A DNA stretch of 60,467 nt from Patescibacteria group bacterium (GCA_038061865.1 JBBTYI010000009.1:1-60467); one strand, 5' to 3'. Positions 2,407 through 52,144 are shown, counted from the first letter of the stretch. The notes: generated from the letters alone by a model not told the origin. Program-made: numbers and translations.

Positions 2407-3972
2407 TTATTTTCTATACTTGGGGGTGTTCCAAAACCCCATATACTTTCCCAGCATCAGGCGGGTTTGGGCGTCAACCGCCGGAATGGCGCCAAAGACA
2501 ATAAAGTTAATTGGGAACAACAGCCATTGCAAAATCATCCAAAGCCATTTCCAGCGGCCGTAGTTGGACGGCTTGGGCGGTAAAAGAATCACTGAAATAA
2601 TCGCCGAAGAAACCAAACCGAACATTGCCAGATACATAACATTACGGGTAAAATGAGGCAAATTGAAAGACAAAACCGTGCGGTTGAACTCCGGCCCGCC
2701 GAACAGCAAGGGCAGCCAGCCCAAAAGGAAAATTATCAGTGGGTTGGTGGCGGCGGAATGGGTTTTCTCGCCCATCAGCCAAGTCAGGCGCCACTTGGCC
2801 CGGCGCGGAATGTTTTTGTTTTTCAGAAAGCCGAACATAAAATAGGGATTGTTTTCCACGCCCCAGTGCCAGCGCCGGATCTGCTTGTACTGGTTCTTCA
2901 TCGTCTGCCAGAAAGTCGGCGCCACGTTGGCATCCATGTAAACCGGATAATACAGCGGCACCGTTTCCCAGTCGCCGTCGTAACGCAAAAGGCATTGCCA
3001 GAAAATGCGTGAATCTTCGGAGACGACATTGGTCTGCCACCAGCCGACATCGGCCAGCGCCTTGAGACCGATGGCTTGCGAAGAAAAAGTGACCAATTGT
3101 TCCGGCCGGGCTTGTTGGATCATCTGCCAAAAAGTGGTGGCGAAAGCGAACACCCGGGCCGGCGGCGGCGCCTCCCAAATGTTGTTGACGTAAAGCGGGA
3201 CTGGCTGGAAAGACGAACGTAAAGAATCCCGCGCCGTCAGATATTTGTAAGTTAAAATCGCGAAATATTGGCTCGGGATAACCGTGTCAATGTCCAAATT
3301 GGAAACGATTACATGCTTGTAAGGAATGTCTAATTGGTCAATTACCTCCGTTACCGCTTGTTTAATTGCCCAAGTGGCGTTGGCGCCTTTGCCGGCTAAT
3401 TCACCGGGAATGTCAGCCGGATGCCGGGTTACCAAAAACTTAAAAAATTTATTGCCATACTCCCTTTGGGCAAATTCCTTCACGCTCTCGGCCTGGTCGC
3501 GCGCCCGTTCTTCCTGCGCCAATACGACAATCATTTTGGTTTTGGGATAATCGCTTCGCACCAGTCCTGCCAAAGTTAAGCCGACCACCTCAACCCCTTC
3601 TTTGGCTACGGGCAGAATTATTAAATGATATACATCCCGCCAGTGGACAATAGACGATAGACGATAGTCAATAGTCGGGAGTTCATCTAATTTTTTAAGC
3701 CAATTTATTTTCAAATTAGCGCGCATTTTGCGAAAACTGGCGTTCATGTGGAACGATAAGTAAATTGTTTTGAAAAGCCAATAAGTGTCAAACAGGATAA
3801 TAAAAATGGCAATAAAAGCCGGACTTTTAAAAGACAAAATAACTATCAAAATCAAAGTCGCCCAAGTTAAAAATCCGGGCAGGATTTCAAAAAACCGGTA
3901 AACTTTCTGGTCTTTGGGATTACTAACATCCTCGGCTTTGCCGATATGGAGATAGTCGTAAGCAGCGGCCAT
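2407..3972 (-). CDS. Membrane-embedded family-2 glycosyltransferase (processive, cellulose/chitin-synthase-like)
   Basis: 521 aa; N- and C-terminal TM helices, central GT-A region, QIRRWHWG (QxxRW) motif typical of processive GT2 enzymes. Confidence 0.6.
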   Translation of the reverse strand: MAAAYDYLHIGKAEDVSNPKDQKVYRFFEILPGFLTWATLILIVILSFKSPAFIAIFIILFDTYWLFKTIYLSFHMNASFRKMRANLKINWLKKLDELPTIDYRLSSIVHWRDVYHLIILPVAKEGVEVVGLTLAGLVRSDYPKTKMIVVLAQEERARDQAESVKEFAQREYGNKFFKFLVTRHPADIPGELAGKGANATWAIKQAVTEVIDQLDIPYKHVIVSNLDIDTVIPSQYFAILTYKYLTARDSLRSSFQPVPLYVNNIWEAPPPARVFAFATTFWQMIQQARPEQLVTFSSQAIGLKALADVGWWQTNVVSEDSRIFWQCLLRYDGDWETVPLYYPVYMDANVAPTFWQTMKNQYKQIRRWHWGVENNPYFMFGFLKNKNIPRRAKWRLTWLMGEKTHSAATNPLIIFLLGWLPLLFGGPEFNRTVLSFNLPHFTRNVMYLAMFGLVSSAIISVILLPPKPSNYGRWKWLWMILQWLLFPINFIVFGAIPAVDAQTRLMLGKYMGFWNTPKYRK

Positions 3973-3986
3973 GCCCCAACAGAATA

Positions 3987-4955
3987 TTACGAAAGGGCGA
4001 TTTGGTAAAGCAGGTCGGTAATGTCAATCAAGCCGTTTTTGATTTGGATGTCGGCTTCAGCCAAACGGGAAAATTTCTGTTTAAGTTCGCCCAGCTCAAA
4101 TTGGCGCGACTGCTCCAGCATTTTTTTGACGGCAAAGGGGTGGAGGCCGGTTTTTTGGGCGATGGCCGCGGCTCCGCCCGGCCCAGCCGCCGCGGCCAGA
4201 TCTTTGACCCTCAACAAATTCCGAAACTGATAAACAAACATTGAAAAAAGATAATGGGGGTCGTCGCCGGCCGCCAAATGGCGGCTAAGCAGGGTGATCG
4301 CCTTGCCCTTGTCCCGCCGGCCGAGCGCATCAATGGTTTCAAAAATATTCTGGCTGGCCGGTTTAGTAACCAAGAGTTCAACATCGGCAGTTTTAATCAA
4401 TCTCCTGTCATACCCGAATGAGTGATTAGCCAGTTTGATTATTTCTTGACTCAACCGCCAAACGTCGTCGCCCGCGTAAAGGACTAATTGTTTAATTGCC
4501 GGCGGCTCAATCTCCAGACCGAGAGTTTTGGTTTCTTTGGCAATCCAATTCTCCAGCTGCTTGCCGGCCAGCGGGTTAAACGCTTTAGCCACGCTTGGCT
4601 TGGCGGTCAATTGGGCCAGTAATTTTTTGGATGTTTTAGCCATCTCCGCTTGACTGGCATTCTCGCAAACCGCCAGAATCGTCTCCTTATCCCCAACCAA
4701 ATCGTATTTTTTAATGTCCCGCAGAATCTTCTCGGCCTGTGAAAAAACATTTTTCACGATAATCAGTTTTTTCTCGTTGAAAAACGAGGCGGTCTTGACC
4801 GCGTTCTCAAATTTTTCAAACTTTTCCTCCCCCTCCGCTAGATCAACACGCAAAACTCCCATCCCATTGGGATTCTTCGCCAAATATTCCCTGACTATTC
4901 TGTCGGCATTCTGTTTTACCCGATAAGCATCCTTCCCATATAGAAACACGATCAT
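3987..4955 (-). CDS. holA: DNA polymerase III delta subunit (HolA-like)
   Basis: 322 aa; N-terminal MIVFLYGKDAYRV and overall helical layout resemble clamp-loader delta; no Walker A, so not dnaX. Confidence 0.6.
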   Translation of the reverse strand: MIVFLYGKDAYRVKQNADRIVREYLAKNPNGMGVLRVDLAEGEEKFEKFENAVKTASFFNEKKLIIVKNVFSQAEKILRDIKKYDLVGDKETILAVCENASQAEMAKTSKKLLAQLTAKPSVAKAFNPLAGKQLENWIAKETKTLGLEIEPPAIKQLVLYAGDDVWRLSQEIIKLANHSFGYDRRLIKTADVELLVTKPASQNIFETIDALGRRDKGKAITLLSRHLAAGDDPHYLFSMFVYQFRNLLRVKDLAAAAGPGGAAAIAQKTGLHPFAVKKMLEQSRQFELGELKQKFSRLAEADIQIKNGLIDITDLLYQIALS

Positions 4956-5072
4956 AAGTACCCTAATTTAAGCCCAAAATCACCCTCTTTCCAATCCTTG
5001 ACAAAGCCCCGATTTGTGGAGATTTTCTTTTGGTAAAATAACGTCTTGCGATGACGTGAGATAACTGACGCG

Positions 5073-5309: not shown

Positions 5310-5313
5310 GTGA

Positions 5314-7250: not shown

Positions 7251-7252
7251 AA

Positions 7253-9751
7253 TTAAACTTGTCTCATTTCCTGCCAATTATCCCCCGCTTTTACTTCCGC
7301 CACTATCGGTACTGCTAGCTGATGGACTGACTCCATAATTGATTTGATTTCTTTGGCTGCTTTTTCTACCAGGTCGGTTTTTACTTCACAAACAATTTCA
7401 TCATGCACTTGGAGTAGAAGCTTGGCGTCGGCGGAATTGAAATTTTCATGAAGATACTTGTCCGCGTTAATCATCGCCAATTTCATCAGGTCGGCGGCGG
7501 TGCCTTGGATAGGATGGTTGATGGCCGCCCGCTCGGCCCCGGCTTGGATTTGGGGCATAGTTGAGTAAATGTCCAACAGCGGGCGGCGCCGGCCGAACAG
7601 CGTTTGGACGTAGCCATCCCGGCGGACCTTGTCTTTTATCTCTTCCATATAGCGCGCCACGCCGGAGAACTCGGCAAAATAGCGGTCAATGAACTGGCGG
7701 GCGCGTTGGCGGTCCACGCCGGCGGCCCGGGCAAAACCAAGCGCGCCCATGCCGTAGATGATGCCGAAGTTTAGCGCCTTGGCCTGACGTCTCATTTTTT
7801 TAGTCACTTCTTGAGGTTCAACTTCAAAGATTTCCATCGCCGTACGGGTGTGGATGTCCTCGCCGCGCCGAAAAATTTCAATCATTTTTTCATCTTTGGC
7901 GATGTGGGCGACAATGCGCAGTTCCAATTGAGAGTAGTCAAAAGAAACCAATTGACAACCGTCCTCGGCGACAAAGGCCTTGCGGAATTCCTGCCCCAGT
8001 TCGGTTTTAATCGGGATATTCTGCAGGTTGGGGTTTTCCGAAGATAGCCGACCGGTGGCGGTGCCGGTTTGATTGTAAGTAGTATGTATCCGACCGTCTC
8101 TGGCGATAAGTTGTGGAAACGGCTCAATGTAAGTGGTTTTGAGTTTTTGCAGTTCGCGGTATTCCAAAATCAAATCAATGATCGGATGTTCGTCGCGCAG
8201 TTTTTCCAGTTCCGGCGCGGCGGTGGAAAGAGCGCCTTTGCCGGTTTTGCGCACCCGTCCACCAGCTGGCGGATTGATCGCCAGCTGGCGGTACAGCACC
8301 TCGCCCAATTGCTGGGGCGAATTAACATTGAACGGCGCTCCGGCCAGACGGTAGATTTCTTTTTCCAATTTCTCCAGCCGCGCGCTGATTGATTTGAGCA
8401 GTTTGGCCAACCCTTTGGCGTTAACTTTGATGCCGTTTAATTCCATCTCGGCCAGCACCGGGATCAGCGGCATTTCAATCTTCTCAAAAACCTCCAGTAA
8501 ATCGGCTGGCTGCATTTTGTCCCAGAGGCGATTTTTCAGCCGCCGGAGATAAGCGGATTTCTGGTCGGGGTCGTCTGCGTTTTCGCGAAACTCGCCGTAA
8601 TAAATCTTGTGAAAATCGTAGTCCGGCAAATCCGGGTGCAATAGCCAAGCGGCAATTTGTGTGTCAAACAACTTGGTTGGGATATCAGTACCGGATTGAA
8701 TGGCAGATTTAACGGTTTCTTTGAGACCATGGCCAGTAAGTATCTCTTGGTCAACGGCCATAACCGGATTTCCCTTGGCTTCACTTTTGACCGTAGGCAA
8801 CGCCATTTCGGTTTGTGGCGATAGATTAATTTCTACCAAGCGCTTCAACAAACTGAAAAACCCCAAATCCTTGAAGTTTTTCTCAATTTTCGGCAAATTC
8901 AGATTCTTCCGCCAATCGGCTTTGGCCAGCGAAAAATCAATGTCCAAATCGGTGACAATTTCCGAAAGTTGTTTTGAAAAAAAGGCCTGTTTTTTGTTAG
9001 CCAGCAATTTCTCTACCAGTTTTTCGGAAATTATCTTATCTTTCGTTCCCTTGTTTTGCGCCTTTCGCTTTGCACTTTTCGCTTCCAAAAATTTGTATAA
9101 TCCATCCAAGCTGCCAAATTTTTGGATTAGCTCCCCCGCCGTTTTCTCTCCGATTCCCGGCACGCCCGGAATATTGTCGGAGGGGTCGCCTTTCAGCCCC
9201 CGATAATCGCTCAATTGTTTGGGCTTTAATCCATAGCGTTCAAGGACCGCGTCCTCATCATAAATTATCGTATCGGTCATGCCCTTACGTAAAGTAAAAA
9301 CGACGACTTTTTTGCCGTCAACCAATTGCAGCGTATCTAAATCACCGGTGGCGATGATGGTTTGTAATCCGCCGGCGGGCGGATTTTTTTTAGCCCGCGT
9401 TGCCAGCGTACCGATCAAGTCATCGGCTTCATAGTTCGTTTTTTCATAAACCGGTATGCCAAACGCGGCCAAAATTTCTTTGACCAACGGAATTTGCCGA
9501 TAAAGCTCCTCGGGCGCTTTAACGCGATGGACTTTGTAGTCCTCAAACTGCTCATGGCGGAAAGTCGGGCCGGCTAAATCAAAAGCGGCGGCGATATAGT
9601 CGGGCTTGAGGTCCTTGATGGTCTTGAGCAGTATTGAGGTGAAACCATAAGCGGCGTTAGTCACCACTCCCTTAGCCGACGTCAAAGCCGGCAAGGCGTG
9701 AAAAGCCCGATGCACCAGAGCATTGCCGTCAATGAGGATAAGCTTGCGCAT
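7253..9751 (-). CDS. polA: DNA polymerase I (5'-3' exonuclease plus polymerase; Taq-like length)
   Basis: 832 aa; N-terminal FEN/5' nuclease domain (LILIDGNALVHRAFHAL); polymerase motif A DYSQLELR, motif B RRQAKALNFGIIYG, motif C VHDE. Confidence 0.95.
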   Translation of the reverse strand: MRKLILIDGNALVHRAFHALPALTSAKGVVTNAAYGFTSILLKTIKDLKPDYIAAAFDLAGPTFRHEQFEDYKVHRVKAPEELYRQIPLVKEILAAFGIPVYEKTNYEADDLIGTLATRAKKNPPAGGLQTIIATGDLDTLQLVDGKKVVVFTLRKGMTDTIIYDEDAVLERYGLKPKQLSDYRGLKGDPSDNIPGVPGIGEKTAGELIQKFGSLDGLYKFLEAKSAKRKAQNKGTKDKIISEKLVEKLLANKKQAFFSKQLSEIVTDLDIDFSLAKADWRKNLNLPKIEKNFKDLGFFSLLKRLVEINLSPQTEMALPTVKSEAKGNPVMAVDQEILTGHGLKETVKSAIQSGTDIPTKLFDTQIAAWLLHPDLPDYDFHKIYYGEFRENADDPDQKSAYLRRLKNRLWDKMQPADLLEVFEKIEMPLIPVLAEMELNGIKVNAKGLAKLLKSISARLEKLEKEIYRLAGAPFNVNSPQQLGEVLYRQLAINPPAGGRVRKTGKGALSTAAPELEKLRDEHPIIDLILEYRELQKLKTTYIEPFPQLIARDGRIHTTYNQTGTATGRLSSENPNLQNIPIKTELGQEFRKAFVAEDGCQLVSFDYSQLELRIVAHIAKDEKMIEIFRRGEDIHTRTAMEIFEVEPQEVTKKMRRQAKALNFGIIYGMGALGFARAAGVDRQRARQFIDRYFAEFSGVARYMEEIKDKVRRDGYVQTLFGRRRPLLDIYSTMPQIQAGAERAAINHPIQGTAADLMKLAMINADKYLHENFNSADAKLLLQVHDEIVCEVKTDLVEKAAKEIKSIMESVHQLAVPIVAEVKAGDNWQEMRQV

Positions 9752-9838
9752 AATTTCTAATATCTAATTACTAATTTCTAAATAATAACTAATGTCTAAT
9801 TGGGGCTTGGACATTGAAATTTGTTTAGAAATTAAAAA

Positions 9839-10318
9839 TTAGGAATTAGTAATTTTAATTGTTCTCTCATTTTGCGAAATATGGTCCATATGCACCCAAA
9901 TACATTTTTTCGGCAAAATCGGCTTCACTCTCTCCGCCCATTCAATTAGCACAATATTTCCCGGCTCGGCGATGATTTTCTTAATTCCCAGCGGCAGCAA
10001 ATCTTTGTAATTTTTCAGGCGATAGCAGTCAATGTGGACCAATTGGTTATAGGTTTTAGGTGATAGGTGATAGGCGCGCATCAATACAAATGTGGGGCTG
10101 GTCAATTTTTGCTTTACTCCCAATGCCTTGGCGAAGGCTTTGGCAAAAGTGGTCTTGCCGGCGCCCAACTCACCCTCTAGAGCTACCACCGTAGCCCTAC
10201 CCGGGGCGCTTGCCCACCGCAGTTTTGGCGAAGGCGGGAAGCGGAGGGTGATCAGCTTGCGCGCAAGTTCGGCAGCAATTTTTTGTGTTTGGGTAACGCT
10301 CTCTGACCGGTATTTCAT
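9839..10318 (-). CDS. tsaE: tRNA t6A biosynthesis ATPase TsaE (YjeE)
   Basis: 159 aa; P-loop GELGAGKTTFAKAF; size and layout typical of TsaE. Confidence 0.8.
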   Translation of the reverse strand: MKYRSESVTQTQKIAAELARKLITLRFPPSPKLRWASAPGRATVVALEGELGAGKTTFAKAFAKALGVKQKLTSPTFVLMRAYHLSPKTYNQLVHIDCYRLKNYKDLLPLGIKKIIAEPGNIVLIEWAERVKPILPKKCIWVHMDHISQNERTIKITNS

Positions 10319-10337
10319 ACGAGATTATAGCTTTTCC

Positions 10338-10368
10338 CGGGCAGTTTTTCAACAAAAAAGACCCGCCT
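10338..10368 (-). terminator. Intrinsic terminator (gacccgc...gcgggtc followed by tttttt on the minus strand) after the glycine-zipper gene
   Basis: 7-bp GC stem followed by a T-run on the minus strand. Confidence 0.55.
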
Positions 10369-10869
10369 TCAGAAGTGCGGGTCAAACCGTCTGCCTGCCC
10401 GAGAATAGTAATGATAGCGGCGATAGGACTGGTCGGTCTGGTTAAGGTAAGCGTCGTCATAGCGCCAGCCCCGTACGAAGCGGCGGGGTTGCCGCCGGTC
10501 ATTGCGACTTTGACTAGCTAACCAGCCAATACTACCGCCGACTATTGCTCCGATAGCCGCACCCTTGCCTTTGCCGGCTATTGCTCCAATCACTGTGCCC
10601 AGCGCCGCGCCGCCCAGTACGGCCCGGGCGCGCGGACCAAGATTCAGATCGTAATAGCCGCTGTAGTATTCCGGATAGAAACCGCCAAACTGACCGTAGC
10701 GGCTATTAATTACCCAATAGCCGTCGTAGCCACTGCCATAGTAAACCCACTGCGGACCCCAGACCCTGACCGGGACCGGCACGGGATACCAGTATTGGTA
10801 TTGAGCTTGCAGTTCGCTGGCGGCGGTCAGTCCAAGCAACAATGCTGACATCACAAAGAACTTTTTCAT
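10369..10869 (-). CDS. Secreted Tyr/Gly-rich glycine-zipper (YMGG-like) protein
   Basis: 166 aa; signal peptide MKKFFVMSALLLGLTAA; GxxxG zipper GGAALGTVIGAIAGKGKGAAIGAIVGG; AGGAGG Shine-Dalgarno upstream. Confidence 0.55.
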   Translation of the reverse strand: MKKFFVMSALLLGLTAASELQAQYQYWYPVPVPVRVWGPQWVYYGSGYDGYWVINSRYGQFGGFYPEYYSGYYDLNLGPRARAVLGGAALGTVIGAIAGKGKGAAIGAIVGGSIGWLASQSRNDRRQPRRFVRGWRYDDAYLNQTDQSYRRYHYYSRAGRRFDPHF

Positions 10870-18408: not shown

Positions 18409-18439
18409 TAAAAATTACTAGTAATCAGTTACTAATTAT

Positions 18440-18515
18440 TATTCGCATGCGCTATGAATTATTCGCGCACACTATTCGTCAAGTGTATGCAACTACTATT
18501 CGTAAGCGTAGTAAC
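18440..18515. repeat. Copy of the ATTCGCATGCGCTATTCGTAAGCGTATGTAAC-family repeat, downstream of the DksA-like gene
   Basis: Sequence identity with the elements at 18904-19060 and, in reverse orientation, at 56399-56550. Confidence 0.6.
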
Positions 18516-18522
18516 TATTATA

Positions 18523-18897
18523 TCAGAGTGGGCGGGCGGTTTTGGCGCAGTCAAAACATAAGCGGACCGCCGACATCGCCTGGAGCCGTTTTCCATCAAT
18601 GTTAGAACGGCATTTTTCACAAACGCCGTAACTGCCGCTCTCCAGTTTGGCTAAGGTATCTTTTATTTCTTTCAGGCGCATTTCCAGACTTTGTTCGACC
18701 GCCCGTTCATTTTCATAGTCGGTAACACTGCGGGCTTTTTCGTCCAGCGTATCGGAGTTTTCCGTTTTGGGGAAAACTGATTGATAATCATCCCTGACGA
18801 CCGGATTTTTCACGGCAAAACGGCCGAGTTCGGCTTCAATTATCTGTATCTCTTGGAGTAAATCTTCTCTTAATTTTTGCAACTCTTGGGGCGTCAT
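18523..18897 (-). CDS. DksA/TraR-family C4 zinc-finger protein
   Basis: 124 aa; coiled-coil N-terminus; C-terminal CEKC...CFDC (CxxC-17-CxxC). Confidence 0.7.
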   Translation of the reverse strand: MTPQELQKLREDLLQEIQIIEAELGRFAVKNPVVRDDYQSVFPKTENSDTLDEKARSVTDYENERAVEQSLEMRLKEIKDTLAKLESGSYGVCEKCRSNIDGKRLQAMSAVRLCFDCAKTARPL

Positions 18898-18903
18898 CAG
18901 TGG

Positions 18904-19060
18904 ATTCGCATGCGCTATTCGTAAACGTATGTAACCATTTTAGAAGTTAAGGCTAGCACGAATATTAAAAATAATCAATGAATAATTCGCGTGCGCTACA
19001 AACGATTCGCATGCGCTATTCGTAAGCGTATGTAACCACTATTTGTAAGCGTAGGTAACT
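18904..19060. repeat. Two near-identical 34-bp direct repeats (18904-18937 and 19005-19038) plus degenerate units, upstream of the DksA-like gene
   Basis: attcgcatgcgctattcgta[a/g][a/c]gtatgtaacca occurs twice about 67 bp apart; partial copies at 18985-19004 and 19040-19059. Confidence 0.65.
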
Positions 19061-19126
19061 ATTTCTGGGTAATAAAAAGGACATCAAACAAGTAACCCAC
19101 AAGAAGATGTGTGGACAATTAGCGGA

Positions 19127-20335
19127 TTATTTGCCGGGGACTGCGTTGGGGTCGATGCTTTTTATTTTATCGATCACCGCGTAAATGTGGGTTTTTGAAC
19201 TGGCAAAAACCAAGTAACTTTCGCCGTTGGGCGCATCCACTACGGCATAATCAACTGTATCCAACGGATCGGGAAAGTTGCGGTAGCGGATAGCCGCGCC
19301 TTGATAAGTGTTATCTAGAAAACCAGTGGAGATGGCCCGCGCTACATTCAGGCGAAACAGGTTTTTCAGATCATTTGAAATGGTAGTTTCCCAGTTTCTC
19401 AACGCGGCGCCCGCCGCGGCCGAGTCATTGACTTTAACGATCCAGCCGTAGCTAAAAGTGCTGTCATTCTTACGCATCAGGGAGGCATAGAATTGGCCAT
19501 CATTTAAAGCGGCAATCAAAGTAGCTGGCGCGTTCGGAAAGCTAGCGGAAGCAAACTGGCTAAAAGGAAAATGTTCGCCGCTAACTGGATCGCCTATCTT
19601 ATAAAGCGCTGGGTCACCTAGGGTCAAACTTTGGGTATCACTTAGGCTAGTTAAGCTAGCGAAGAGATCGGGAGTAACATTGGCAATCGGCCCATACACT
19701 TGGGTAAAGACCGTTTCCAGCGGCGGTATGACCACCGGAGTCGGAGTAACCGTAATGCTCGGGGTCGGTGATTCAACGACGGCCGGCGAGGGCTCATAGA
19801 AAACCAAAAACCAAAGCGAAAAACCGCCAATTATCAAAACGGTCAGAATAGCCAGCAATCCGGAACGGCCGAAAACCGGTTTTTTAGGAGTTGGCGGTAC
19901 GGCGATTTGCGCGCTGATGCCGGGCGATGGCCGACTGGTCGGAATCCCGGCAGGAGGAGGAGGGGCAAAAACAGGCCGAGGCGGGGAGACGGGTGATGCA
20001 GGTGTAATAGGCGGTTTTGGAACCACTGAAATAGGTCTTTCCGGAGTAATACCAATGGGAGGTTTCCCTTTGCTCAAAGCGGTTAAATCATCCTGCATTG
20101 TGCGAATTGACGATTTAATATTTGGGCTGGGTGCCGGCGGCGGCATCGTCCCCGCCATAGTTTTTGGCGCTGGGGGTGAAAAAATCACAGGGCCGGTCGG
20201 AGACGGCTGGGGCGGTTTTAACGGAGAAGGGGGAGGCGCCGGCGGGCGGGCGGGGGATGGCGGAATATTTCCGGTTGGTAAATTCGGCGGCGGAATTTTG
20301 AGGTCGAAACCGGAAGATTGGTTTTGATCGGCCAT
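19127..20335 (-). CDS. Proline-rich membrane-anchored hypothetical protein
   Basis: The start was trimmed to MADQNQ. An approximately 150-aa Pro-rich N-terminal region is followed by one TM helix (LLAILTVLIIGGFSLWFLVF) and an extracytoplasmic domain. Confidence 0.5.
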   Translation of the reverse strand: MADQNQSSGFDLKIPPPNLPTGNIPPSPARPPAPPPSPLKPPQPSPTGPVIFSPPAPKTMAGTMPPPAPSPNIKSSIRTMQDDLTALSKGKPPIGITPERPISVVPKPPITPASPVSPPRPVFAPPPPAGIPTSRPSPGISAQIAVPPTPKKPVFGRSGLLAILTVLIIGGFSLWFLVFYEPSPAVVESPTPSITVTPTPVVIPPLETVFTQVYGPIANVTPDLFASLTSLSDTQSLTLGDPALYKIGDPVSGEHFPFSQFASASFPNAPATLIAALNDGQFYASLMRKNDSTFSYGWIVKVNDSAAAGAALRNWETTISNDLKNLFRLNVARAISTGFLDNTYQGAAIRYRNFPDPLDTVDYAVVDAPNGESYLVFASSKTHIYAVIDKIKSIDPNAVPGK

Positions 20336-20402
20336 GCTAACACAACTGCCAACTTCCAATTTCTAACTAATAAAGCATTCGTTAGCGATTGGCGGTTAGC
20401 AA

Positions 20403-27688: not shown

Positions 27689-27732
27689 CCCCTATCAAAA
27701 ACCCCCGCCTAGGCGGGGGTTTTTGATAGGGG
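27689..27732. terminator. 21-bp perfect hairpin (cccctatcaaaaacccccgcc-ta-ggcgggggtttttgatagggg) at the tmRNA 3' end
   Basis: Perfect reverse complement over 21 bp with a 2-nt loop; abuts the tmRNA acceptor end. Confidence 0.6.
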
Positions 27733-28080
27733 TGGACTTGGGGGAAATCGAATCCCCGTCTGGAGGTTCATTTACACAAGCGCTACAAGTTTAGCCCGTC
27801 TTGTTTTAAGTAACCGCGTAAAAGACGGGCGAAATAGCGATTACTTGCTTTGAGGGTTGCGACCGGCGATCGGCAAAGCAACCAGATGCCGGAAGTTCCC
27901 GCTGATGACGTTGGTGACTGACTAGCGGGGTCGTCAGGCCAACGGCTACCTAAATGATGTTAGGCGGCAAACGCGAAATTTTGGTTTGCGTTTAGATTTT
28001 TGATTGTTGATTAAAGCGGTGACAATCATCCGCTACTTGCGCTGGTTATAAACGTACCGCCATCAAAGCCGGTCAAGCCC
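27731..28080 (-). ncRNA. ssrA: tmRNA (SsrA), about 350 nt, tag peptide (A)ANQNFAFAA
   Basis: Minus-strand read: 5' GGGCUUGACCGGCUUUGAUGGCGG resembles the consensus 5' GGGGCUGAUUCUGGAUUCGACGGG. The 3' end has a T-arm GGGGA-UUCGAUU-UCCCC and an acceptor strand CAAGUCC pairing with the 5' GGGCUUG. In frame is GCA AAC CAA AAU UUC GCG UUU GCC GCC UAA. An upstream TTGGAC-17-CATAGT promoter is present, and smpB is 1.8 kb away. Confidence 0.85.
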
Positions 28081-32687: not shown

Positions 32688-33257
32688 ATGAAGCACAAAA
32701 AACTCAACCAGAATTTTTTCGCCCGCCCAACGCTTCAAGTGGCCAGAGAGCTTTTGGGCAAGTTTTTAGTTCGTAAAATCGGCCAGCGCCAGATTGCCGC
32801 AATGATTACCGAAACCGAGGCCTATCGCGGGCCAAACGATCTGGCTTCGCACGCTTCGCACGGACCTGCCTGGCCGGCAGGCAGACGGACGCCGCGGACC
32901 GAAGTAATGTTCGGCCCGCCCGGCCACGCTTATATTTATCTGATTTACGGGATGTATCATTGCCTGAATATCGCCACGGAAAAGGAGGGCTACCCCGCCG
33001 CTGTCTTGATTCGTGGTGCTTCATTATTCCCTAAAACCTATAACCTAACACCTACCCTGAACGGGCCGGGGAAATTATGCCGTTTTTTAAAAATAGATAA
33101 AATGCTAAATGGGGATAATCTGACTATCAGTCCGCGGCTGTGGTTGGAGGATCGGGGCAACAAAATCAGACCCAATCAGATTAAAAGGACCAAAAGAATC
33201 GGGGTGGATTATGCCGGGCCATACAAAGACAAATTGTGGCGGTTTATGATAAAGTGA
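32688..33257 (+). CDS. DNA-3-methyladenine glycosylase (Mpg/AAG family)
   Basis: 189 aa; ARELLGKFLVRK...ITETEAYRG...GHAYIYLIYGMYHCLNIAT. Confidence 0.85.
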   Translation: MKHKKLNQNFFARPTLQVARELLGKFLVRKIGQRQIAAMITETEAYRGPNDLASHASHGPAWPAGRRTPRTEVMFGPPGHAYIYLIYGMYHCLNIATEKEGYPAAVLIRGASLFPKTYNLTPTLNGPGKLCRFLKIDKMLNGDNLTISPRLWLEDRGNKIRPNQIKRTKRIGVDYAGPYKDKLWRFMIK

Positions 33258-35375: not shown

Positions 35376-38300
35376 ATGACATTGGATGATTTCAAAAAGA
35401 ACGAAGAGAAAATACTGAAATTTTGGGGGGACAGCAAAATTTTTGAAAAAAGTTTGGCGCAAAGAAAAGGCGCCAAGCCGTTTGTTTTTTATGAAGGTCC
35501 GCCCACCGCCAACGGCCTGCCCCATATCGGCCATCTCCTCACTCGCATCTTCAAGGACCTCTACGGCCGGTATAAAACTATGCGCGGCTATTACGTCCTG
35601 CGCCGGGCCGGCTGGGACACCCACGGCTTGCCGGTGGAGATTGAAGTGGAAAAGCAGCTGGGACTGAAAACTAAAAAAGACATAGAAGAATTCGGCATCG
35701 CCCGCTTCAACAAAAAGGCGAGAGAAAGCGCGCAAAAGTACAAGGCCGAATGGGAAAGAATGACCGAAAGGATGGGTTTTTGGCTGGACTTGGACAACCC
35801 CTATATCACTTACCGGCCCGATTATATTGAATCAGTTTGGGCGATAATCAAAAAAATTTGGGACAAGAAATTGCTTTACCAAGGCCACAAGGTGATACCT
35901 TTCTGCACCCGTTGCGGCACGCCGCTTTCCAGCCATGAAGTGGCCCAGGGATATGAGGACATTACCGAAACAGCGGTGATAGTAAAGTTAAAAATCAAAG
36001 AACCTTTAGAAGCTATAAGCCATAACCTAACACCTAACACCTATTTTCTGGCTTGGACAACGACCCCGTGGACTTTGCCGGGCAATGTCGCTTTGGCGGT
36101 AGGGGAAAGTATTAAGTATCTAATAGTAAGTATTAAGGGAGGAAATGAGAAATACGTTTTGGCGGAAGATCGGGCAGAAAAGGTGCTTAATGCCGAATAT
36201 GAGATACTTGATACCGTCTCTGGAAAAGACTTGGTCGGTTTGGAATACGAACCGCTGTTTGACGTTGCCGCGCTAAAATCAAAAAATTCTTACAAAGTTT
36301 ACCCGGCTGATTTTGTCACTACCGAGGAGGGCACTGGCATTGTCCATACGGCGGTGATGTACGGTGAGGAGGATTATGAACTAGGCAAAAAAGTCGGTTT
36401 GCCGACTCGCCATACCGTGGACGAGCAAGGGCGGTTCACTGCCGATGTCGCCGCTTTTTCCGGCCAATATGTCAAAGACGCCGAGCCAGGCATCGTGAAA
36501 TATCTGCGCGATAAAAACCGGCTGTTCAAAGAAGAACTCCACCTCCACACTTATCCTTTTTGCTGGCGCTGCCACACGCCATTGCTTTACTACGCCACCG
36601 ATTCGTGGTTCATCAAAATGTCCGCCCGGCGCCAGCAGCTATTGAAAAACAACCGCCAGATAAACTGGAAACCGAAGCACATGAAGGAAGGGCGGTTTGG
36701 CGAATTCATCAAAGAAACCAAGGATTGGGCCTTGAGCCGTAAGCGTTACTGGGGAACGCCGCTGCCGATTTGGCAATGCGCTAATAAACATCATCTGGTG
36801 GTCAGCGCGCTGGCCGATTTGGAAAGACATCGTTTTCGTCCAGCCAATACTTATTATCTGATCCGCCACGGCACCAGCACTAAAAATGTCGTGCCCGGCA
36901 AGGATATCATCTCTTCCAAACTGGAAAAGGATGCTTACGAACTGACTAGTCAAGGCCGCGCCGAGGTAAAAGAAACGGCCCGCCAGCTCAAACGGGCCAA
37001 CGGGGCGGACTTGATTATCAGCTCGCCGTTTTTGCGCACCAAACAAACCGCGCAGATTATTGCCGACTACTTGAACCAGCCGGTAAAAATTGACAAACGG
37101 CTGAAAGAAATAGATCTGGGGTCCGCTAACGAAGGCCGACTGTACGACGAAGCTATTCCGCCGGTGCCGGATTTTGAGACCAAACTTGACGACGGCGAGA
37201 GCCGGCACGATGTCAGAAGGCGGGTCTGGTCATTGATACGTGAGCTGGAAGAAAAATATTCCGGCAAAAAGATCATTTTGGTCAGCCACGGAGATCCCAT
37301 CTGGTTATTGGACGGGCTGTCACGCAATCTGGATGAGCCGGCCATGTTGTTGCATCGGGCACAGGATTATCTTAAAAAAGGCGGGGTCAGGAAAGTTACT
37401 TTTGCCAACTATCCGCGCAATGAAGATGGTGAAGTGGATCTGCACCGGCCGTATGTGGATGAGATAGCGCTGAAATGTCCCGAATGCAATGAAGCAATGC
37501 GCCGTGTACCCGACTTGATAGACGTTTGGTTTGATTCGGGCGCTATGCCGCTGGCCCAGTGGCATTACCCGTTTGAGAATAAAAAGTTAGTTGACAGCGG
37601 ACAACAGTATCCGGCCGATTTCATTGTTGAAGCCATTGACCAGACCCGGGGCTGGTTTTATACAATGCTGGCTATTGCCACCGCTTCGGGTCGCAAACCG
37701 CCTTATAAAAATGTGATGGTGCTCGGCCACACGCTGGATGAAAAGGGCCGCAAAATGTCCAAGTCCAAAGGCAATGTCATCATGGCGCACGACATTTTGG
37801 AACAGTTTGGCGCCGATGTTGTCCGTTGGTATCTGTTCACGCTGTCCGACCCGGCCGATGGCAAGCCGATCAGCCCTAAAGACATAGCACAAAAGTACCG
37901 GGGATTTTTCGGCACCTTGCAAAATACTTTACGCTTTTTTGAATTGTACGCCTCCTCGGCCAAACCCAGCGGCTCGCCTGAACCGCAGAGCGAATTAGAC
38001 CAGTGGCTCTTCGCCCGTTTGGCCCAACTGACTGCCACCGTCACAGAAAATCTGGACGCCTATGCACCCACTATCGCCGCCCGGGCGATTGAGGAGTTCG
38101 TGGTGGATGATTTGTCTAACTGGTGGGTCAGGCGGTCAAGAAAAAGATTCCAGCACCCGGTTAGTAATGAGGAACTGGTCTATGTCGCTTCAATTTTACG
38201 ATATGCGCTTTTGGAATTGGCAAAAATTATAGCTCTGTTTATACCCTTCACTGCCGAATGGCTGCATTCCGAACTGCACCGCGGCCAGACGGCCGGGACG

Positions 38301-44544: not shown

Positions 44545-44565
44545 AGAAAGATAGTGATCGGTCCC

Positions 44566-44595
44566 GACATCATGCCGGGATTTTTTATTTCCCCC
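44566..44595 (+). terminator. Intrinsic terminator (tcccg-acatcatgc-cggga followed by ttttttattt)
   Basis: Stem with a T-run after the 43009 gene. Confidence 0.45.
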
Positions 44596-44616
44596 CGCCT
44601 GTGCTATTTTAAATTT

Positions 44617-45903
44617 ATGGAAACCAAAATGCCATTTTCTTTTTTCACCTTCCCCAACGGCCTCCGCTTGATTACCGTGCCGGTAACCAGCACCGACAGC
44701 GTAACGGTTTTGGTGATGGTCGGCACTGGTTCAAGATACGAAAACAAAGAGATTAACGGCATTTCCCACTTTCTGGAACACATGATGTTCAAAGGCACGG
44801 CCAAGCGGCCCAAAGTCACCGATATCGCCCTGGAGCTGGACACCATCGGCGCCGAGTACAATGCTTTCACGGGCAAGGAATACACCGGCTACTATGTCAA
44901 ATGCGCCGCCGAAAAAGTGGATACCGCCCTGGACGTGATTTCCGATATTTTCCAAAACTCAAAACTTGACGCCGAGGAGATGGAGCGGGAGCGGGGGGTA
45001 ATTATTGAAGAAATCAATATGTATCTAGACACGCCGGCCCGCTATGTCGGCGACCTGTTTGAAGAACTGATGTACGGCGACCAGCCGCTGGGCTGGCACA
45101 TCACCGGCCCCAAGGAAGTTATCCGCAAATTAAGCCGCGGCGATTTTGTCAAATACTTCACCACTCACTATTTTGATAAAAATACCGTCATCGCCGTCGC
45201 CGGCAATATTGACCCGGGGCAAATCAAGCAAAAAGTTTCCAGTTATTTTTCAGACGTTCGCACCAACCAAAAACTGGAAGCGCTCAAGGTAAAAGAAGAA
45301 CAAGACCGGCCACGCCTGAAAATTCACAACAAAAAGACCGACCAGACCCACTTTATTATTGGTTTCCGGGCCTTTGACTATTTCAGCGATAAAGAGGCAG
45401 TGTTGAATGTGATGTCTCTGGTATTGAGCGCCGGTTTCAGCTCGCGGCTGTGGAACGAGTTCCGCGATAAACGCGGTTTATCTTACTATATCCGGGCGAC
45501 TAACAATAGTTACGCCGATGCCGGCTATTTTGAAATTAGCGCCGGAGTGGACAACACCCGCTTGACCGAAGCGCTTGACGCCGCTCTGGCGGAATGTAAA
45601 AAGTTAGCCGACCAAGCGGTCTCCGCAGCCGAACTTAAAAAAGTCAAAGATTACGCCCACGGCAAGCTGGCAATCGGTCTGGAAACTTCGGACGAGCTGG
45701 CTTCTTTTTACGCCGACCAGGAATTGCTTAAGCGGGAAATTCTGACGCCCGAGCAGAAACTGGCGAAAATTGACGCTGTGACTGCCGAACAGCTCCAAGC
45801 GGCGGCCCAAGAGATTTTCAGACCGGAACGCCTCAATCTGGCATTGATCGGTCCGTTCGAGCAAGACGATATCAAGATTAACAAAATTATCAATTCGTGG
45901 TAA
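44617..45903 (+). CDS. M16-family zinc peptidase (insulinase/pitrilysin-like)
   Basis: The start was chosen at METKMPF. Inverted zincin motif HFLEHMMFKGT; two M16 domains. Confidence 0.85.
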   Translation: METKMPFSFFTFPNGLRLITVPVTSTDSVTVLVMVGTGSRYENKEINGISHFLEHMMFKGTAKRPKVTDIALELDTIGAEYNAFTGKEYTGYYVKCAAEKVDTALDVISDIFQNSKLDAEEMERERGVIIEEINMYLDTPARYVGDLFEELMYGDQPLGWHITGPKEVIRKLSRGDFVKYFTTHYFDKNTVIAVAGNIDPGQIKQKVSSYFSDVRTNQKLEALKVKEEQDRPRLKIHNKKTDQTHFIIGFRAFDYFSDKEAVLNVMSLVLSAGFSSRLWNEFRDKRGLSYYIRATNNSYADAGYFEISAGVDNTRLTEALDAALAECKKLADQAVSAAELKKVKDYAHGKLAIGLETSDELASFYADQELLKREILTPEQKLAKIDAVTAEQLQAAAQEIFRPERLNLALIGPFEQDDIKINKIINSW

Positions 45904-45904: not shown

Positions 45905-45985
45905 CTAGCTTATTAGCTTTTTAGCTGCTTAGCTGCCTAGGGAATCCCTAAGAAGCTAAGAAGCTAGGCAGCTAATTAGCTGCCC
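45905..45985. repeat. AGCT-rich low-complexity region containing an imperfect inverted repeat (cttagctgcctaggg / ccctaag...ctaggcagctaa)
   Basis: 12-bp perfect inverted repeat TTAGCTGCCTAG/CTAGGCAGCTAA plus tandem TAGCT units. Confidence 0.5.
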
Positions 45986-48579: not shown

Positions 48580-48588
48580 TCCCAACAA

Positions 48589-49014: not shown

Positions 49015-49024
49015 TTTCGGATTA
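48997..49024. repeat. Right inverted repeat flanking the GxxExxY gene (attcggataaattcg...tttcggatta)
   Basis: 16/16 match to the reverse complement of the left copy; overlaps the gene stop. Confidence 0.55.
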
Positions 49025-49791
49025 TGTTAATTGACTCCCATTGCCATCCGCAATTTCCCCAATATGACAGCGACCGGGAGGAAGTAATTAAACGCGCCCT
49101 GGATGGCGGTGTCCGGATAATCTGCGTGGGTACGGATCTAGAAAAATCTAAGCAAGCGATTGAGTTGGCGGAAAAATATGATGGGGTGTGGGCAACGGTC
49201 GGTTTGCATCCCAATGACCGGTCGGAAAATTTTCAGATTGCGGATTATGAAAAACTGTTAGGCCATCCAAAAGTAGTGGCAATAGGGGAAGTAGGTTTGG
49301 ACTATTACCGCACGCCGGAATCAGAAAAACAAAAACTGCAACGTGGTGTTTTACAGCAATTTCTGACGCTGGCTACGGAAGTCAAATTACCCCTGATCGT
49401 CCATTGCCGCAATGCCCACGCCGATATGCTTGCTATGTTCCGTGCTTCAAGCTCTATGTTCCATGGGGTAGTCCACTCTTTCACCGGCACTTGGGAGCAA
49501 GCCCAGCAATACATTGATTTAGGGTTTTATATCGGCTTAAATGGAATTATCACTTTTTCTGACCAATACCGGGAAATGATTGAAAAAATACCGCTTGACC
49601 GGATTTTACTGGAAACCGACGCGCCCTATCTAACGCCCACGCCCTACCGCGGCAAACGCAACGAACCGTTCTACATTACCACAGTCGCCCAAAAGATCGC
49701 CGAATTGAAACAAATACCGTTGGAACAAGTCGCCGAAATCACTACTCAAAACGCGGAAAAATTTTTCAAAATTTCTGACTCCAGTCGATGA
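49024..49791 (+). CDS. TatD-family metal-dependent hydrolase/DNase
   Basis: 255 aa; MLIDSHCHPQF, conserved His/Glu/Asp pattern. Confidence 0.9.
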   Translation: MLIDSHCHPQFPQYDSDREEVIKRALDGGVRIICVGTDLEKSKQAIELAEKYDGVWATVGLHPNDRSENFQIADYEKLLGHPKVVAIGEVGLDYYRTPESEKQKLQRGVLQQFLTLATEVKLPLIVHCRNAHADMLAMFRASSSMFHGVVHSFTGTWEQAQQYIDLGFYIGLNGIITFSDQYREMIEKIPLDRILLETDAPYLTPTPYRGKRNEPFYITTVAQKIAELKQIPLEQVAEITTQNAEKFFKISDSSR

Positions 49792-49816
49792 CTATTACCG
49801 TACTAGAATAGTCAAA

Positions 49817-52144
49817 ATGCCCAAATACGACCACAAAAAAACGGAAAAATACTGGCAAGCCAAATGGCTCAAGGAGAAAATCTACGAGCCGGACTTAAAG
49901 AGTCCGCGCGGGAAGGGTAAGTTCTATAACCTGATGATGTTCCCGTATCCCTCGGCCGAGGGTCTGCATGTCGGCAATGTGTACGCTTTCGTCGGCAGCG
50001 ATATTTACGGACGTTATCAACGGATGCGGGGCTACGATGTGTTTGAGCCGATCGGTTTGGATGGCTTTGGCATCCATTCCGAGAACTACGCTTTGAAAAT
50101 CGGCAAGCATCCGGCTGACCAAGCCAAAATCTCGGAAAAAAAATTCTATAAACAATTGAGGGCCATCGGCAACGGTTTCGCTTGGGATGAGAAACTGGAA
50201 ACCTACGACCCGGAATACTATCGCTGGACGCAATGGATTTTTATCCAAATGTTTAAACACGGGCTGGCTTACCGCAAAAAGCAGGCCGTCAACTGGTGCC
50301 CTTCCTGTCTGACCGTGCTGGCTGACGAACAAGTAATCGCCGGCGAGTGCGAGCGCTGTGAGAGCAAGGTGATTAAAAGGGAGCTGGAGCAGTGGTTTTT
50401 CAAAATCACCGATTATGCCGAGCGGCTGTTGAACAATCTGGATAAAATTGACTGGTCGGAAAAGATTAAGATTGCCCAAAGAAATTGGATTGGCAAAAAC
50501 ACCGGCGCCCTGATAGGTTTTAAGTTACAAGCTACAAGTTACAAAATTGACGTCTTCACTACCCGTCCTGATACGCTGTTTGGTGCCACTTATATGGTTC
50601 TGGCTCCCGAACATGAGTTAATCCGCCAGCTTAAACCGCAAATCCAAAATTGGTCGGGGGTGGAGACATATATCAATACCGCCAAGGCCAAAACCACCGA
50701 ACAGCGGATCGCTGAAGGCAAAGAAAAAACCGGGGTAGAACTGAAAGGCGTGATGGCCGTTAATCCCGCCAATCAAAAGGAGATTCCGGTTTGGGTAGCC
50801 GACTACGTACTCACCGGCCACGGTACCGGCGCGATTATGGCCGTACCGGCGCATGATGAACGGGATGCGGAGTTTGCCAAAAAATTCGGCTTGCCGGTTA
50901 GTGACGCACCATTAGTGGATAATGAAGAAATCATCAAAAAAGTCGGCGGCCAGAAAATCACCAACTACCGCTTGCGCGATTGGCTAATCTCCCGTCAGCG
51001 CTATTGGGGGCCGCCGATTCCGATGATTTACTGCGATCCGCCAGCTGGCGGATGTAATTGGCAGCCGGTGCCGGAGGAGGATCTGCCGGTGGTGTTACCA
51101 AAGGTTAAAGACTTCCGTCCGACTGGCACCGATAAATCACCGCTGGCTTCGGTGGAAAAGTTTTACCAAACCAAATGTCCCAAGTGCGGCGGCCCCGCCC
51201 GGCGCGAAACCGATGTGTCGGACACCTTCCTTGATTCAGCTTGGTATTATTTGCGCTATCCGTCAGTCAAAGACAAAAAAACCCCTTTTGGTCCCGCGAT
51301 AACCAAAACTTGGCTGCCAGTTGACGTGTACATTGGGGGAGCCGAACATGCTGTTCTACACCTGCTTTATGTTCGTTTTGTGGCTATGGCACTGCACGAT
51401 TGGGGGCTGGTGGATTTTTCCGCCAAAGGCGGAGAACCGGCCACGCGTTTCCGAGCGCATGGACTGTTAATCAGCGGCGGCGCCAAAATGTCCAAGTCGC
51501 GCGGCAACGTCGTCAACCCGGATGAATACATCAAAAAATACGGGGCTGACGTTTTGCGGATGTATCTGATGTTTCTGGGGCCGTTTGACCAAGGCGGGGA
51601 TTTCAGAGATGAGGGCGTGGCTGGGATTGTACGGTTTATCAATCGCGTTTGGTCGCTAAAAGAAAAAATAGCCAGTCAAGATAGCCTAGAACTTAACCGA
51701 CCCCTCCATAAATCAATTAAAAAAGTCAGCGAGGATATTGCCGAGCTTCACTACAACACGGCCATCAGCCAGCTGATGATTTTGTCGCGGGAAATGGAAA
51801 ATGGTTTTTCCGCAGAACAATTGGAAATTTTCCTGAAATTGCTGGCTCCCTTTGCTCCGCATATTACTGAAGAAATTTGGCACAGTATTCTGAAAAACAA
51901 GGAGTCAATCCATATTGCCCCCTGGCCGGAATATAACCCCAAACTCATCGCCGACGAGATGATTGACTTCATCATCCAGATTAACGGCAAGGCCCGAGGG
52001 GTGGTTACGTTGGCTCAAAATAGCACCGAACCAGAGGTCAGCGCGGCGGCCCAAACCAACGCCAACATCAAAAAACATCTCGCCGACAAGACAATCATTA
52101 AGACTGTTTTTGTCCCAAACCGGCTCATCAATTTCGTCATCTGA
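49817..52144 (+). CDS. leuS: Leucyl-tRNA synthetase
   Basis: 775 aa; HVGN (HIGH), KMSKSRGN, CP1 editing region. Confidence 0.95.
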   Translation: MPKYDHKKTEKYWQAKWLKEKIYEPDLKSPRGKGKFYNLMMFPYPSAEGLHVGNVYAFVGSDIYGRYQRMRGYDVFEPIGLDGFGIHSENYALKIGKHPADQAKISEKKFYKQLRAIGNGFAWDEKLETYDPEYYRWTQWIFIQMFKHGLAYRKKQAVNWCPSCLTVLADEQVIAGECERCESKVIKRELEQWFFKITDYAERLLNNLDKIDWSEKIKIAQRNWIGKNTGALIGFKLQATSYKIDVFTTRPDTLFGATYMVLAPEHELIRQLKPQIQNWSGVETYINTAKAKTTEQRIAEGKEKTGVELKGVMAVNPANQKEIPVWVADYVLTGHGTGAIMAVPAHDERDAEFAKKFGLPVSDAPLVDNEEIIKKVGGQKITNYRLRDWLISRQRYWGPPIPMIYCDPPAGGCNWQPVPEEDLPVVLPKVKDFRPTGTDKSPLASVEKFYQTKCPKCGGPARRETDVSDTFLDSAWYYLRYPSVKDKKTPFGPAITKTWLPVDVYIGGAEHAVLHLLYVRFVAMALHDWGLVDFSAKGGEPATRFRAHGLLISGGAKMSKSRGNVVNPDEYIKKYGADVLRMYLMFLGPFDQGGDFRDEGVAGIVRFINRVWSLKEKIASQDSLELNRPLHKSIKKVSEDIAELHYNTAISQLMILSREMENGFSAEQLEIFLKLLAPFAPHITEEIWHSILKNKESIHIAPWPEYNPKLIADEMIDFIIQINGKARGVVTLAQNSTEPEVSAAAQTNANIKKHLADKTIIKTVFVPNRLINFVI

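Follow-up and report, generated by a model that had tools for sequence, protein, structure and literature searches.

Tandem heptanucleotide repeats, called short tandemly repeated repetitive (STRR) sequences, reportedly occur in heterocystous cyanobacteria. Hairpin-forming small dispersed repeats (SDRs) of 21-27 nt are also said to be embedded in the STRR heptamer arrays of cyanobacteria. In the part of the work of Mrazek, Guo & Shah (2007) that is relayed in PMC4679880 and PMC4692102, heptamers showed the strongest over-representation among the long simple repeats of bacteria, and polymerase slippage was proposed as the cause of this excess. A preference for about four units has been described for GGGNATC repeats (PMC4692102). 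TAACTGA direct repeats, for which a regulatory role was proposed, have been found in marine Beggiatoaceae, cyanobacteria and Bacteroidetes (PMC4679880). The literature that we searched contained no account of heptamer repeats, or of the small hairpin described below, in Patescibacteria (the candidate phyla radiation, CPR). Here, we analyzed a 60,467-nt stretch of DNA from a Patescibacteria group bacterium (GCA_038061865.1 JBBTYI010000009.1:1-60467, hereafter the window), which carries short tandem heptanucleotide arrays, mostly in frame within essential genes. We consider it somewhat probable that these arrays belong to a dispersed family which is produced by a DNA-level process, is filtered by selection, is widespread in Patescibacteria and behaves like the cyanobacterial STRR/SDR system. 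STRR heptamers paired with embedded hairpin SDRs appear to be its closest analogue.

About 91% of the window was coding sequence. Tandem Repeats Finder (TRF) was run on the window and, with the same settings, on 100 dinucleotide-preserving shuffles that served as the chance level. The window contained 39 short arrays, of which 11 had period 7. Comparatively, the shuffles averaged 1.29 period-7 arrays, and none had more than 5, so the repeats, first noticed in an earlier reading of the sequence alone (the sequence-only reading), exceeded the expectation from composition. Period 9 was also in excess in the same comparison (9 vs 1.3), and such an excess is expected in coding DNA. By TRF, the period-7 arrays had 2.3-7.6 copies and covered 16-50 nt; inspected by eye, nearly all of them had about four units (~28 nt). 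Eight of the 11 were fully coding and in frame, and the other three lay within or bordered intergenic DNA. The arrays were as follows.

586-613, plus strand: recG array, units TCTATAA, CCTATAA, CTTAAAA and CCTGATT, peptide SITYNLKPD, family CCTAWMA (TRF 587-609, period 7).
3646-3674, minus strand: array in the 521-aa open reading frame (ORF) 2407-3972, units TATTGAC, TATCGTC, TATCGTC and TATTGTC, peptide TIDYRLSSIV (TRF 4.1 copies).
9751-9800, no strand: intergenic array of about seven TAATNTC units (TRF) that forms the left arm of an inverted-array hairpin and lies directly 5′ of the start codon of the minus-strand ORF 7253-9751.
9825-9854, no strand: inverted partner array, 4.3 copies of TTAGNAA, overlapping the last codons and the stop codon of tsaE.
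10045-10074, minus strand: tsaE array, units CCTATCA, CCTATCA, CCTAAAA and CCTATAA, peptide AYHLSPKTYNQ, family CCTAWMA.
19800-19815, minus strand: weak AAAACCA repeat of 2.3 copies in ORF 19127-20359, TRF score 32, possibly a chance match.
20343-20368, minus strand: array at the leader and start of ORF 19127-20359, just 5′ of a start codon, TRF period 7, 3.7 copies, 65% inside the called ORF.
33030-33057, plus strand: mpg array, units CCTAAAA, CCTATAA, CCTAACA and CCTACCC, peptide PKTYNLTPT, family CCTAWMA.
36019-36046, plus strand: ileS site 1 array, units GCCATAA, CCTAACA, CCTAACA and CCTATTT, peptide SHNLTPNTY, directly before the WTTTPWT motif, family CCTAWMA.
36107-36137, plus strand: ileS site 2 array (TRF), AGTATTA-type units, peptide ESIKYLIVSIK, pairing with 36186-36214.
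50517-50544, plus strand: leuS array, units GTTTTAA, GTTACAA, GCTACAA and GTTACAA, peptide FKLQATSYK, where the editing domain begins.

All five heptamer sites named in the sequence-only reading were present when the sequence and its translation were read, and they encoded the peptides claimed. The arrays in recG (586-613), at ileS 36107-36137, in the intergenic DNA at 9751-9800 and 9825-9854, and at 20343-20368 had not been listed before. The first ileS array had been described as three copies of ACCTAAC. It is indeed an array, of four units with degenerate flanks (36019-36046), and its exact copies number 2.7 (36025-36043). The leuS array likewise has four units (50517-50544). The label 'GT2 gene' given to ORF 2407-3972 had no support from Pfam, in which the ORF had no match. 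One or two of the weak arrays (19800-19815 and possibly leuS) could be chance matches.

We found that one unit, CCTAWMA on the sense strand, was common to four arrays, i.e. those of recG, tsaE, mpg and ileS site 1. Among the 11 period-7 arrays, six pairs of units were no more than one mismatch apart, where 1.26 such pairs would be expected (P = 0.005), and one unit was matched by four others (P = 0.002). With up to two mismatches, the motif ACCTAACACCTA occurred 10 times vs 2.0 times expected. Other sites in the window had units unlike CCTAWMA (GACGATA, GTTACAA and AGTATTA). In the inverted-repeat analysis of the window, the coding arrays had no palindromic structure.

The arrays in coding sequences were compatible with translation in a specific way. 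Three heptamers make seven codons, in which each phase of the unit is read once. All reading phases of the repeat give cyclic permutations of a single peptide, T-Y-N-L-T-P-K. Therefore, the repeated T-Y-N-L-T-P-K 'motif' arises automatically from the DNA repeat. The peptides that it encodes, TYNLTPK in its cyclic permutations, would be side products of that repeat and not functional motifs. In the CCTAWMA arrays of recG, tsaE, mpg and ileS, the unit that could have placed TAA in frame reads TAT. In related MPG arrays of three other loci (L083, L091 and L092), the corresponding ACC-TAx unit was TAT or CAT, and never TAA or TGA.

The host of the window belongs to Patescibacteria. In an IleRS search, its closest match was locus L002, which is 66% identical and syntenic. 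A cyanobacterial origin was ruled out, as the HIP1 motif (GCGATCGC) was absent from the window and the closest relatives were metagenome-assembled genomes of Patescibacteria. Near-identical contigs were available from 0.1-µm metagenomes of Hainich groundwater; they reach only about 1 kb past the window ends. The arrays were identical in these independent assemblies from different samples and, thus, are not assembly artefacts.

We surveyed the same gene positions in other bacteria, using an alignment of 13 CPR and two non-CPR IleRS and a census of 80 ileS loci (12 CPR-labelled and 68 others). In the IleRS alignment, the loops flanking WTTTPWTLPGN had period-7 arrays in the window and in L002, L009, L012, L014 and L017. 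Arrays were present at this site in six of the 12 CPR-labelled loci and in one of the 68 others. HNLKPKT of L002 is orthologous to HNLTPNTY of the window. L014 and L017 had arrays at site 2 as well, and each used one unit at both sites (AAATTAA in L014 and AAGTGAA in L017), with units differing among genomes. The density of arrays in ileS loci was 2.2 per 10 kb in the CPR-labelled loci vs 0.53 in the others, the high CPR value being due mainly to L017 (20 arrays in 23 kb) and L007. L017 had dispersed families of its own, AATAACC at 5-6 sites and AAGTGAA at four; L007 and L014 also had their own families. As a separate observation on this gene, the IleRS of the window (1162 aa) has a histidine phosphatase domain (PF00300 His_Phos_1; 36855-37310, aa 494-645) inserted between its class I catalytic halves. 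The syntenic IleRS of L091 has the same insertion, and the alignments of shorter CPR IleRS (955-1018 aa) to that of the window have a gap over roughly this stretch.

The other genes behaved similarly. In MPG, the array site was hypervariable, with insertions of up to ~45 aa in many of the 120 CPR homologues listed. These insertions resembled translated heptamer arrays or hairpins; those of P0004, P0010, P0011, P0088 and P0107 contained [TC][YH]NLKP, and P0010 and P0088 had ETYNLKPE at the array position of the window. The DNA of MPG homologues confirmed the heptamer arrays, some of them as direct and inverted copies. A TsaE homologue (P0159, locus L214) carried five ACCTAWA units where the window has its tsaE array, with the peptide IYNLKPKTY. 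LeuS of L217 had (AATTCCA)x4.6 at the window's site, again with no length change, and in LeuS of L216 the array at this site was broken by the 21-nt hairpin described below. Peptides unrelated to these also occurred at the sites in other lineages (e.g. KIKNDKL, VKSEKLK and PNSKFQI). The sequence-only reading had regarded the repeat-encoded residues as lineage-specific insertions, which does not agree with the arrays that other Patescibacteria have at the same IleS, LeuS, MPG and TsaE positions.

Two of these genes showed further peculiarities. A GC-rich insertion of 11 aa (33 nt), PPSPKLRWASAP, whose inverted arms CGCTTCCCGCC and GGTGGGCAAGCG are imperfect, lies in the tsaE of the window at ~10204-10240 (minus strand, aa ~27-38). 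It is absent from nearly all aligned homologues, and P0159 has a different insertion there. The gene (9839-10318) is also a mosaic relative to the Hainich H51 contig L215, in that ~200 nt at the 5′-side are ~70% identical and ~275 nt at the 3′-side are nearly identical, which suggested recombination between CPR populations. Many CPR LeuRS homologues (P0261, P0273, P0277, P0287, P0319, P0340 and others) are 890-1150 aa long and have an extra NUDIX (PF00293), alpha/beta-hydrolase or Ham1 (PF01725) domain. Domain fusion or insertion in aminoacyl-tRNA synthetases seems to be common in CPR.

The arrays of the window and of L002 were orthologous and separated by ordinary substitutions; therefore, they are old. 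Some bases were specific to a lineage and common to its units, e.g. AACACCT x2 in the window vs AAAACCY x2 in L002, and three of the four units of the L083 array were ACCTGAA. This small sample of sequences suggests that the units inside one array are kept uniform.

We also examined where the arrays lie in the proteins and how much length they add. In alignments, the arrays of IleS, LeuS, TsaE and RecG fell in segments that vary among homologues. In an AlphaFold model of MPG (overall confidence score, pLDDT, 80), the array residues formed a coil between two strands with a pLDDT of ~65. The arrays thus occupy poorly conserved surface segments, which bears out the proposal that the repeats are located in surface loops. 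The proposal that they are 3 x 7 = 21-nt insertions did not hold. The LeuS segment (KLQATSYK) had no net length change (0 aa): it aligned without gaps to PVEGKEVR of the Thermus thermophilus LeuRS, and the 20-residue segment has the modal length among 120 CPR homologues. The TsaE segment (AYHLSPKTYNQ) likewise had a net change of 0 aa relative to nearly all aligned CPR homologues, and of +1 to +3 aa relative to TsaE structures in the Protein Data Bank (PDB). For LeuS and TsaE, these alignments to PDB structures and CPR homologues excluded a simple 21-nt insertion. RecG gained 1 aa compared with the Thermotoga maritima RecG and 8 aa compared with the Escherichia coli RecG. IleS site 1 was 4 to 9 aa longer than PDB IleRS and ~10 aa longer than array-free CPR orthologues, and site 2 had a net change of +2 aa. 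The MPG segment, between AAVLIR and GPG, had 16 aa vs 8 aa in the base state (AVDAxGVN), i.e. about +8 aa.

A real frame-neutral mini-insertion of 21 nt, as the sequence-only reading had envisaged, was found in mpg at a site that had not been on its list:

32865-32885, plus strand: 21-nt GC-rich hairpin CCTGCCTGGCCGGCAGGCAGA in mpg, peptide PAWPAGR, a 7-aa insertion.

This hairpin was the only indel between the window and strain L081, which are 98.98% identical over 5.09 kb, and it was also absent from L082. Its peptide was disordered in the AlphaFold model of MPG (pLDDT <50). An MPG with 71% identity had an identical 20-mer at the same codon, and PAWPAGR occurred in four of 121 MPGs (that of the window included), which were not mutual closest relatives. 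The family to which it belongs, CCTGCCTRCCGGNNAGGCAGG, is 21 nt long with the stem CCTGCCT/AGGCAGG; the fold z-score of the isolated element was not significant. We found related copies in the CPR loci L004, L007, L014, L091 and L092, and those of L007 (IleS) and L092 (MPG) sat between heptamer arrays. No copy was found in 1.18 Mb of non-CPR ileS loci.

In one metagenome scan, at least 120 stretches matched CCTGCCTRCCGGNNAGGCAGG, and the context of 80 of them was examined. The host contigs mostly had a GC content of 30-50%. Of the 80 copies, 63 sat in ORFs that were 100 aa or longer (median 310), and ten annotated long host ORFs encoded unrelated proteins, including SppA, LigA, LepA, PurL, a GT2 enzyme and a restriction-modification (RM) methylase. 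All six reading frames were used, and the element is free of stop codons in every one of them. About 15 of the 80 copies broke a heptamer array that continued on both sides, without target duplication. The position of the leuS array in the window provided a filled and empty pair: LeuRS P0259 differed from the 88%-identical P0262 by exactly the 7 aa LPRRQAG, and the DNA of this peptide is the hairpin inside a TTTCCAA-type array. The two proteins differed by four indels (LPRRQAG, RQAQGKNA, ALQGSSGQ and KILNPKPEILNP), all of which looked like mini-elements. Such mini-elements may dominate the indel variation among CPR orthologues. Contig L120 (59% GC), with three or four tandem 21-mers at each end in inverted orientation (124-241 and 3635-3752), was considered as a master element and rejected. 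It is probably a fold-back assembly because its ORF layout is mirror-symmetric.

Some arrays were arranged as inverted pairs. The heptamer arrays 9752-9799 and 9807-9854 form 48-nt arms that are 75% complementary, with an RNA fold of -24.5 kcal/mol (z = -6.9). The ileS site 2 array and 36186-36214 form 29-nt arms that are 79% complementary, and the fold of 36100-36220 had z = -4.8. A third structure is built of octamers:

45907-45981, no strand: intergenic tandem-octamer hairpin, four copies of TAGCTNNT plus an inverted copy, beginning 4 nt past the end of ORF 44554-45903 (TRF period 8).

Its 37-nt arms are 81% complementary around a 1-nt loop, with a fold of -39 kcal/mol (z = -4.1). In the tsaE region scanned (9600-10400), there was neither a terminator-like site nor a terminator-like T-tract. 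The window had no Rfam match besides the transfer-messenger RNA (tmRNA) gene (27731-28080, minus strand; tag peptide ANQNFAFAA).

The existence and excess of the arrays, their common units, their location, the avoidance of stops, the recurrence at homologous sites and the presence or absence of the hairpin between close relatives are observations. From them, we infer how the arrays are generated and spread, and that they are neutral for the host proteins. A DNA-level process would write heptamer runs of about four units (~28 nt) and keep the runs uniform. Candidate processes are 7-nt slippage in replication or repair together with conversion or template switching between arrays, or a coupling to the hairpin. 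The heptamer would be typical of a genome or clade, CCTAWMA being that of the window, and the process would either overwrite the existing sequence or lengthen it. As the genome is ~91% coding, the survivors would be limited to copies that keep the frame, in which the unit that would place TAA or TGA in frame is changed (to TAT or CAT in every array examined), and that are sited in loops tolerant of any sequence. Selection for tolerant loops would in turn explain why the same permissive loops bear arrays in many lineages. Non-coding arrays occur as inverted pairs forming long hairpins. The stop-free GC-rich 21-nt hairpin would belong to the system as its second member; its gain or loss is precise (+7 codons), and it is often located within heptamer arrays.

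Several points weigh against this proposal. Relatives with 97-100% identity (L081, L082, L086-L090 and L215) had no array differences, in a sample of little divergence, and their identical arrays give no direct sign that slippage or movement of the arrays continues. In essential genes, a single 7-nt step would cause a lethal frameshift; a multi-unit or conversion mechanism must therefore be assumed. The IleS site-1 units of L014 and L017 (AAATTAA and AAGTTAA) resemble the ancestral local codons of a K/V-rich strand, which favours local nucleation over import. The window covers 60 kb of the host genome and holds one hairpin copy. Pure import is disfavoured by the same L014 and L017 units and by the zero net length change at some sites.

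If nucleation is local, each array could have arisen independently by slippage from a chance 7-nt near-repeat, without transfer between sites or any link to the hairpin. The general excess of heptamer simple repeats in bacteria, which has been ascribed to polymerase slippage, fits this explanation, as do the window sites that differ in unit (GACGATA, GTTACAA and AGTATTA) and the IleS site-1 units of L014, L017, L012 and L009, which look derived from local ancestral codons. However, slippage of this kind does not account for a CCTAWMA unit common to four unlinked genes (P about 0.002-0.005), nor for the CCTAWMA-type family that is also found in other genomes and other genes. It would be expected to leave copy-number differences among strains, which were not observed, and the gain or loss of one unit would shift the frame in essential genes. 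The inverted array pairs and the hairpin-interrupted arrays are also unexplained by it. We therefore regard purely local slippage as unlikely.

About equally unlikely is that the arrays are tied to the mobile 21-nt hairpin, either as its preferred landing pads or as scars or by-products that its insertion and excision leave behind. Solitary arrays of four units, as in the window, would then be empty or vacated sites. The ~15 of 80 metagenome copies that break an array which resumes without target-site duplication suggested such a link. Further cases were LeuS of L216, MPG of L092 and IleS of L007, and the flanking units total ~4-6, close to the size of a solitary array. Cyanobacterial SDRs reportedly show this association with heptamer arrays too. 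Nevertheless, ~65 of the 80 copies lay outside arrays, the only hairpin of the window was outside arrays as well, its 11 arrays had no hairpin, and no excision leaving an array was observed.

A selected function, in the form of a T-Y-N-L-x-P linear motif, a repeat bound by a regulator (e.g. a cold-shock-type protein) or a terminator, seems very improbable. The peptide is present in four proteins and conserved in MPG and TsaE homologues, but this recurrence is automatic, since any frame yields cyclic permutations, and at these positions the units and peptides of other lineages can be unrelated. A function of the peptide motif was rejected on these two grounds. The sites are, moreover, disordered or variable loops. 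Two intergenic arrays directly 5′ of start codons, two stable hairpins after stop codons and the regulatory role proposed for the Beggiatoaceae TAACTGA repeats would speak for a function of the repeat as DNA or RNA; against it, no terminator-like T-tract was found at 9600-10400 and no Rfam family matched at the arrays. Finally, chance, composition bias or assembly artefact has almost no probability left for the array set as a whole, given the 11 arrays observed vs at most five in 100 shuffles, the identical arrays in independent assemblies and the orthologous arrays in the 66%-identical L002, although, with ~1.3 period-7 TRF matches expected by chance, one or two of the weak arrays might be spurious.

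CPR genomes are tiny and gene-dense, and selfish DNA is expected to be scarce in them. Beyond the reading that we prefer, i.e. a dispersed heptamer family filtered by selection, we tentatively raise a wider possibility, which we consider rather less probable. The hairpin, with no stop in any of six frames, and the ~28-nt arrays may be unrecognised ultra-small mobile DNA of Patescibacteria, frame-neutral in loops of IleRS, LeuRS, TsaE, MPG, RecG, LigA, LepA and other proteins. They might account for much of the small-indel variation in CPR and might share a way of mobilisation or templating with the STRR/SDR system. If arrays and hairpin recurrently enter the loops of essential enzymes, they would be among the main sources from which loops and indels evolve in these proteins, and a nuisance for the alignment and annotation of CPR proteins. 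They would also provide a second, phylogenetically remote system for studying the origin of very small mobile repeats and of 7-nt tandem repeats. Concrete filled and empty test cases are mpg in the Hainich groundwater strains and LeuRS P0259 vs P0262.

Other repeats in the window were noted separately. Intergenic regions 18409-18522 and 18898-19126, which flank ORF 18523-18897, contain repeated 22-23-nt units, CTATTCGTAAGCGTAGGTAAC, and ATTCGCATGCGCTA motifs; from their sequence, they look like putative operator or regulatory sites. A repeat of ~130 nt (89% identical) lies at 59278-59413, near the right end of the window, and as an inverted copy at 944-1067 of L086. The inverted copy covers the first ~90 nt of the window and ~35 nt beyond its left end, as seen in L086. 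Position 59277 is a break point of several independent assemblies.

Compared with known systems, the arrays consist of head-to-tail units of period 7 (mostly about four), are over-represented, and form genome-specific unit families at many loci, as heptanucleotide repeats do. With the long simple sequence repeats of bacteria (Mrazek 2007), they share a period-7 excess over composition; they differ in being in frame in conserved enzymes, recurrent at homologous loops and stable among close strains. The TAACTGA repeats resemble them in that a specific heptamer is present at many loci in 2-6 direct copies, frequently just 5′ of start codons, and is patchily distributed over the phylogeny. In contrast, the TAACTGA repeats are mostly intergenic and have another unit, and neither in-frame colonisation of housekeeping genes nor a hairpin element was described for them.

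The sequence-only reading had likened the repeats to Rickettsia palindromic elements (RPEs). This is apt as a parallel in selfish DNA that is in frame in coding genes, including essential ones, free of stops and tolerated at surface positions. Size, structure and host show that it is not the same family: RPEs are palindromic, ~100-150 bp long and specific to Rickettsia, whereas we found 28-nt arrays, several of them without net insertion, and a 21-nt hairpin. RPEs are a functional analogue only. The identity with MITEs (miniature transposable elements with inverted repeats) was rejected, as the arrays have no terminal inverted repeats and no target-site duplication occurs where they resume past the hairpin (L130, L159 and L169). 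REP and REPIN sequences (PMC3116915) are also short, dispersed, hairpin-forming repeats, whose inverted doublets make longer hairpins; however, REPs lie outside genes and go together with a RAYT transposase gene, whereas the copies found here were mostly intragenic and no RAYT gene was noted in the window, where no search aimed at one was made.

The STRR/SDR system differs from the present one in several respects. The host here is a member of Patescibacteria, most copies are in frame within essential genes (8 of the 11 arrays are coding) whereas STRRs are mainly intergenic, and the arrays are short (~4 units). The two were likened by description and not by the sequences of SDR1-8. In spite of these differences, the 21-nt hairpin has the length and form of an SDR, dispersed copies in unrelated contexts, copies embedded in arrays, and filled and empty sites. 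Both systems would then combine tandem heptamers that are dispersed over the genome and have units specific to a lineage, a hairpin element inside heptamer arrays (21-27 nt in SDRs and 21 nt here), and filled and empty sites between relatives.

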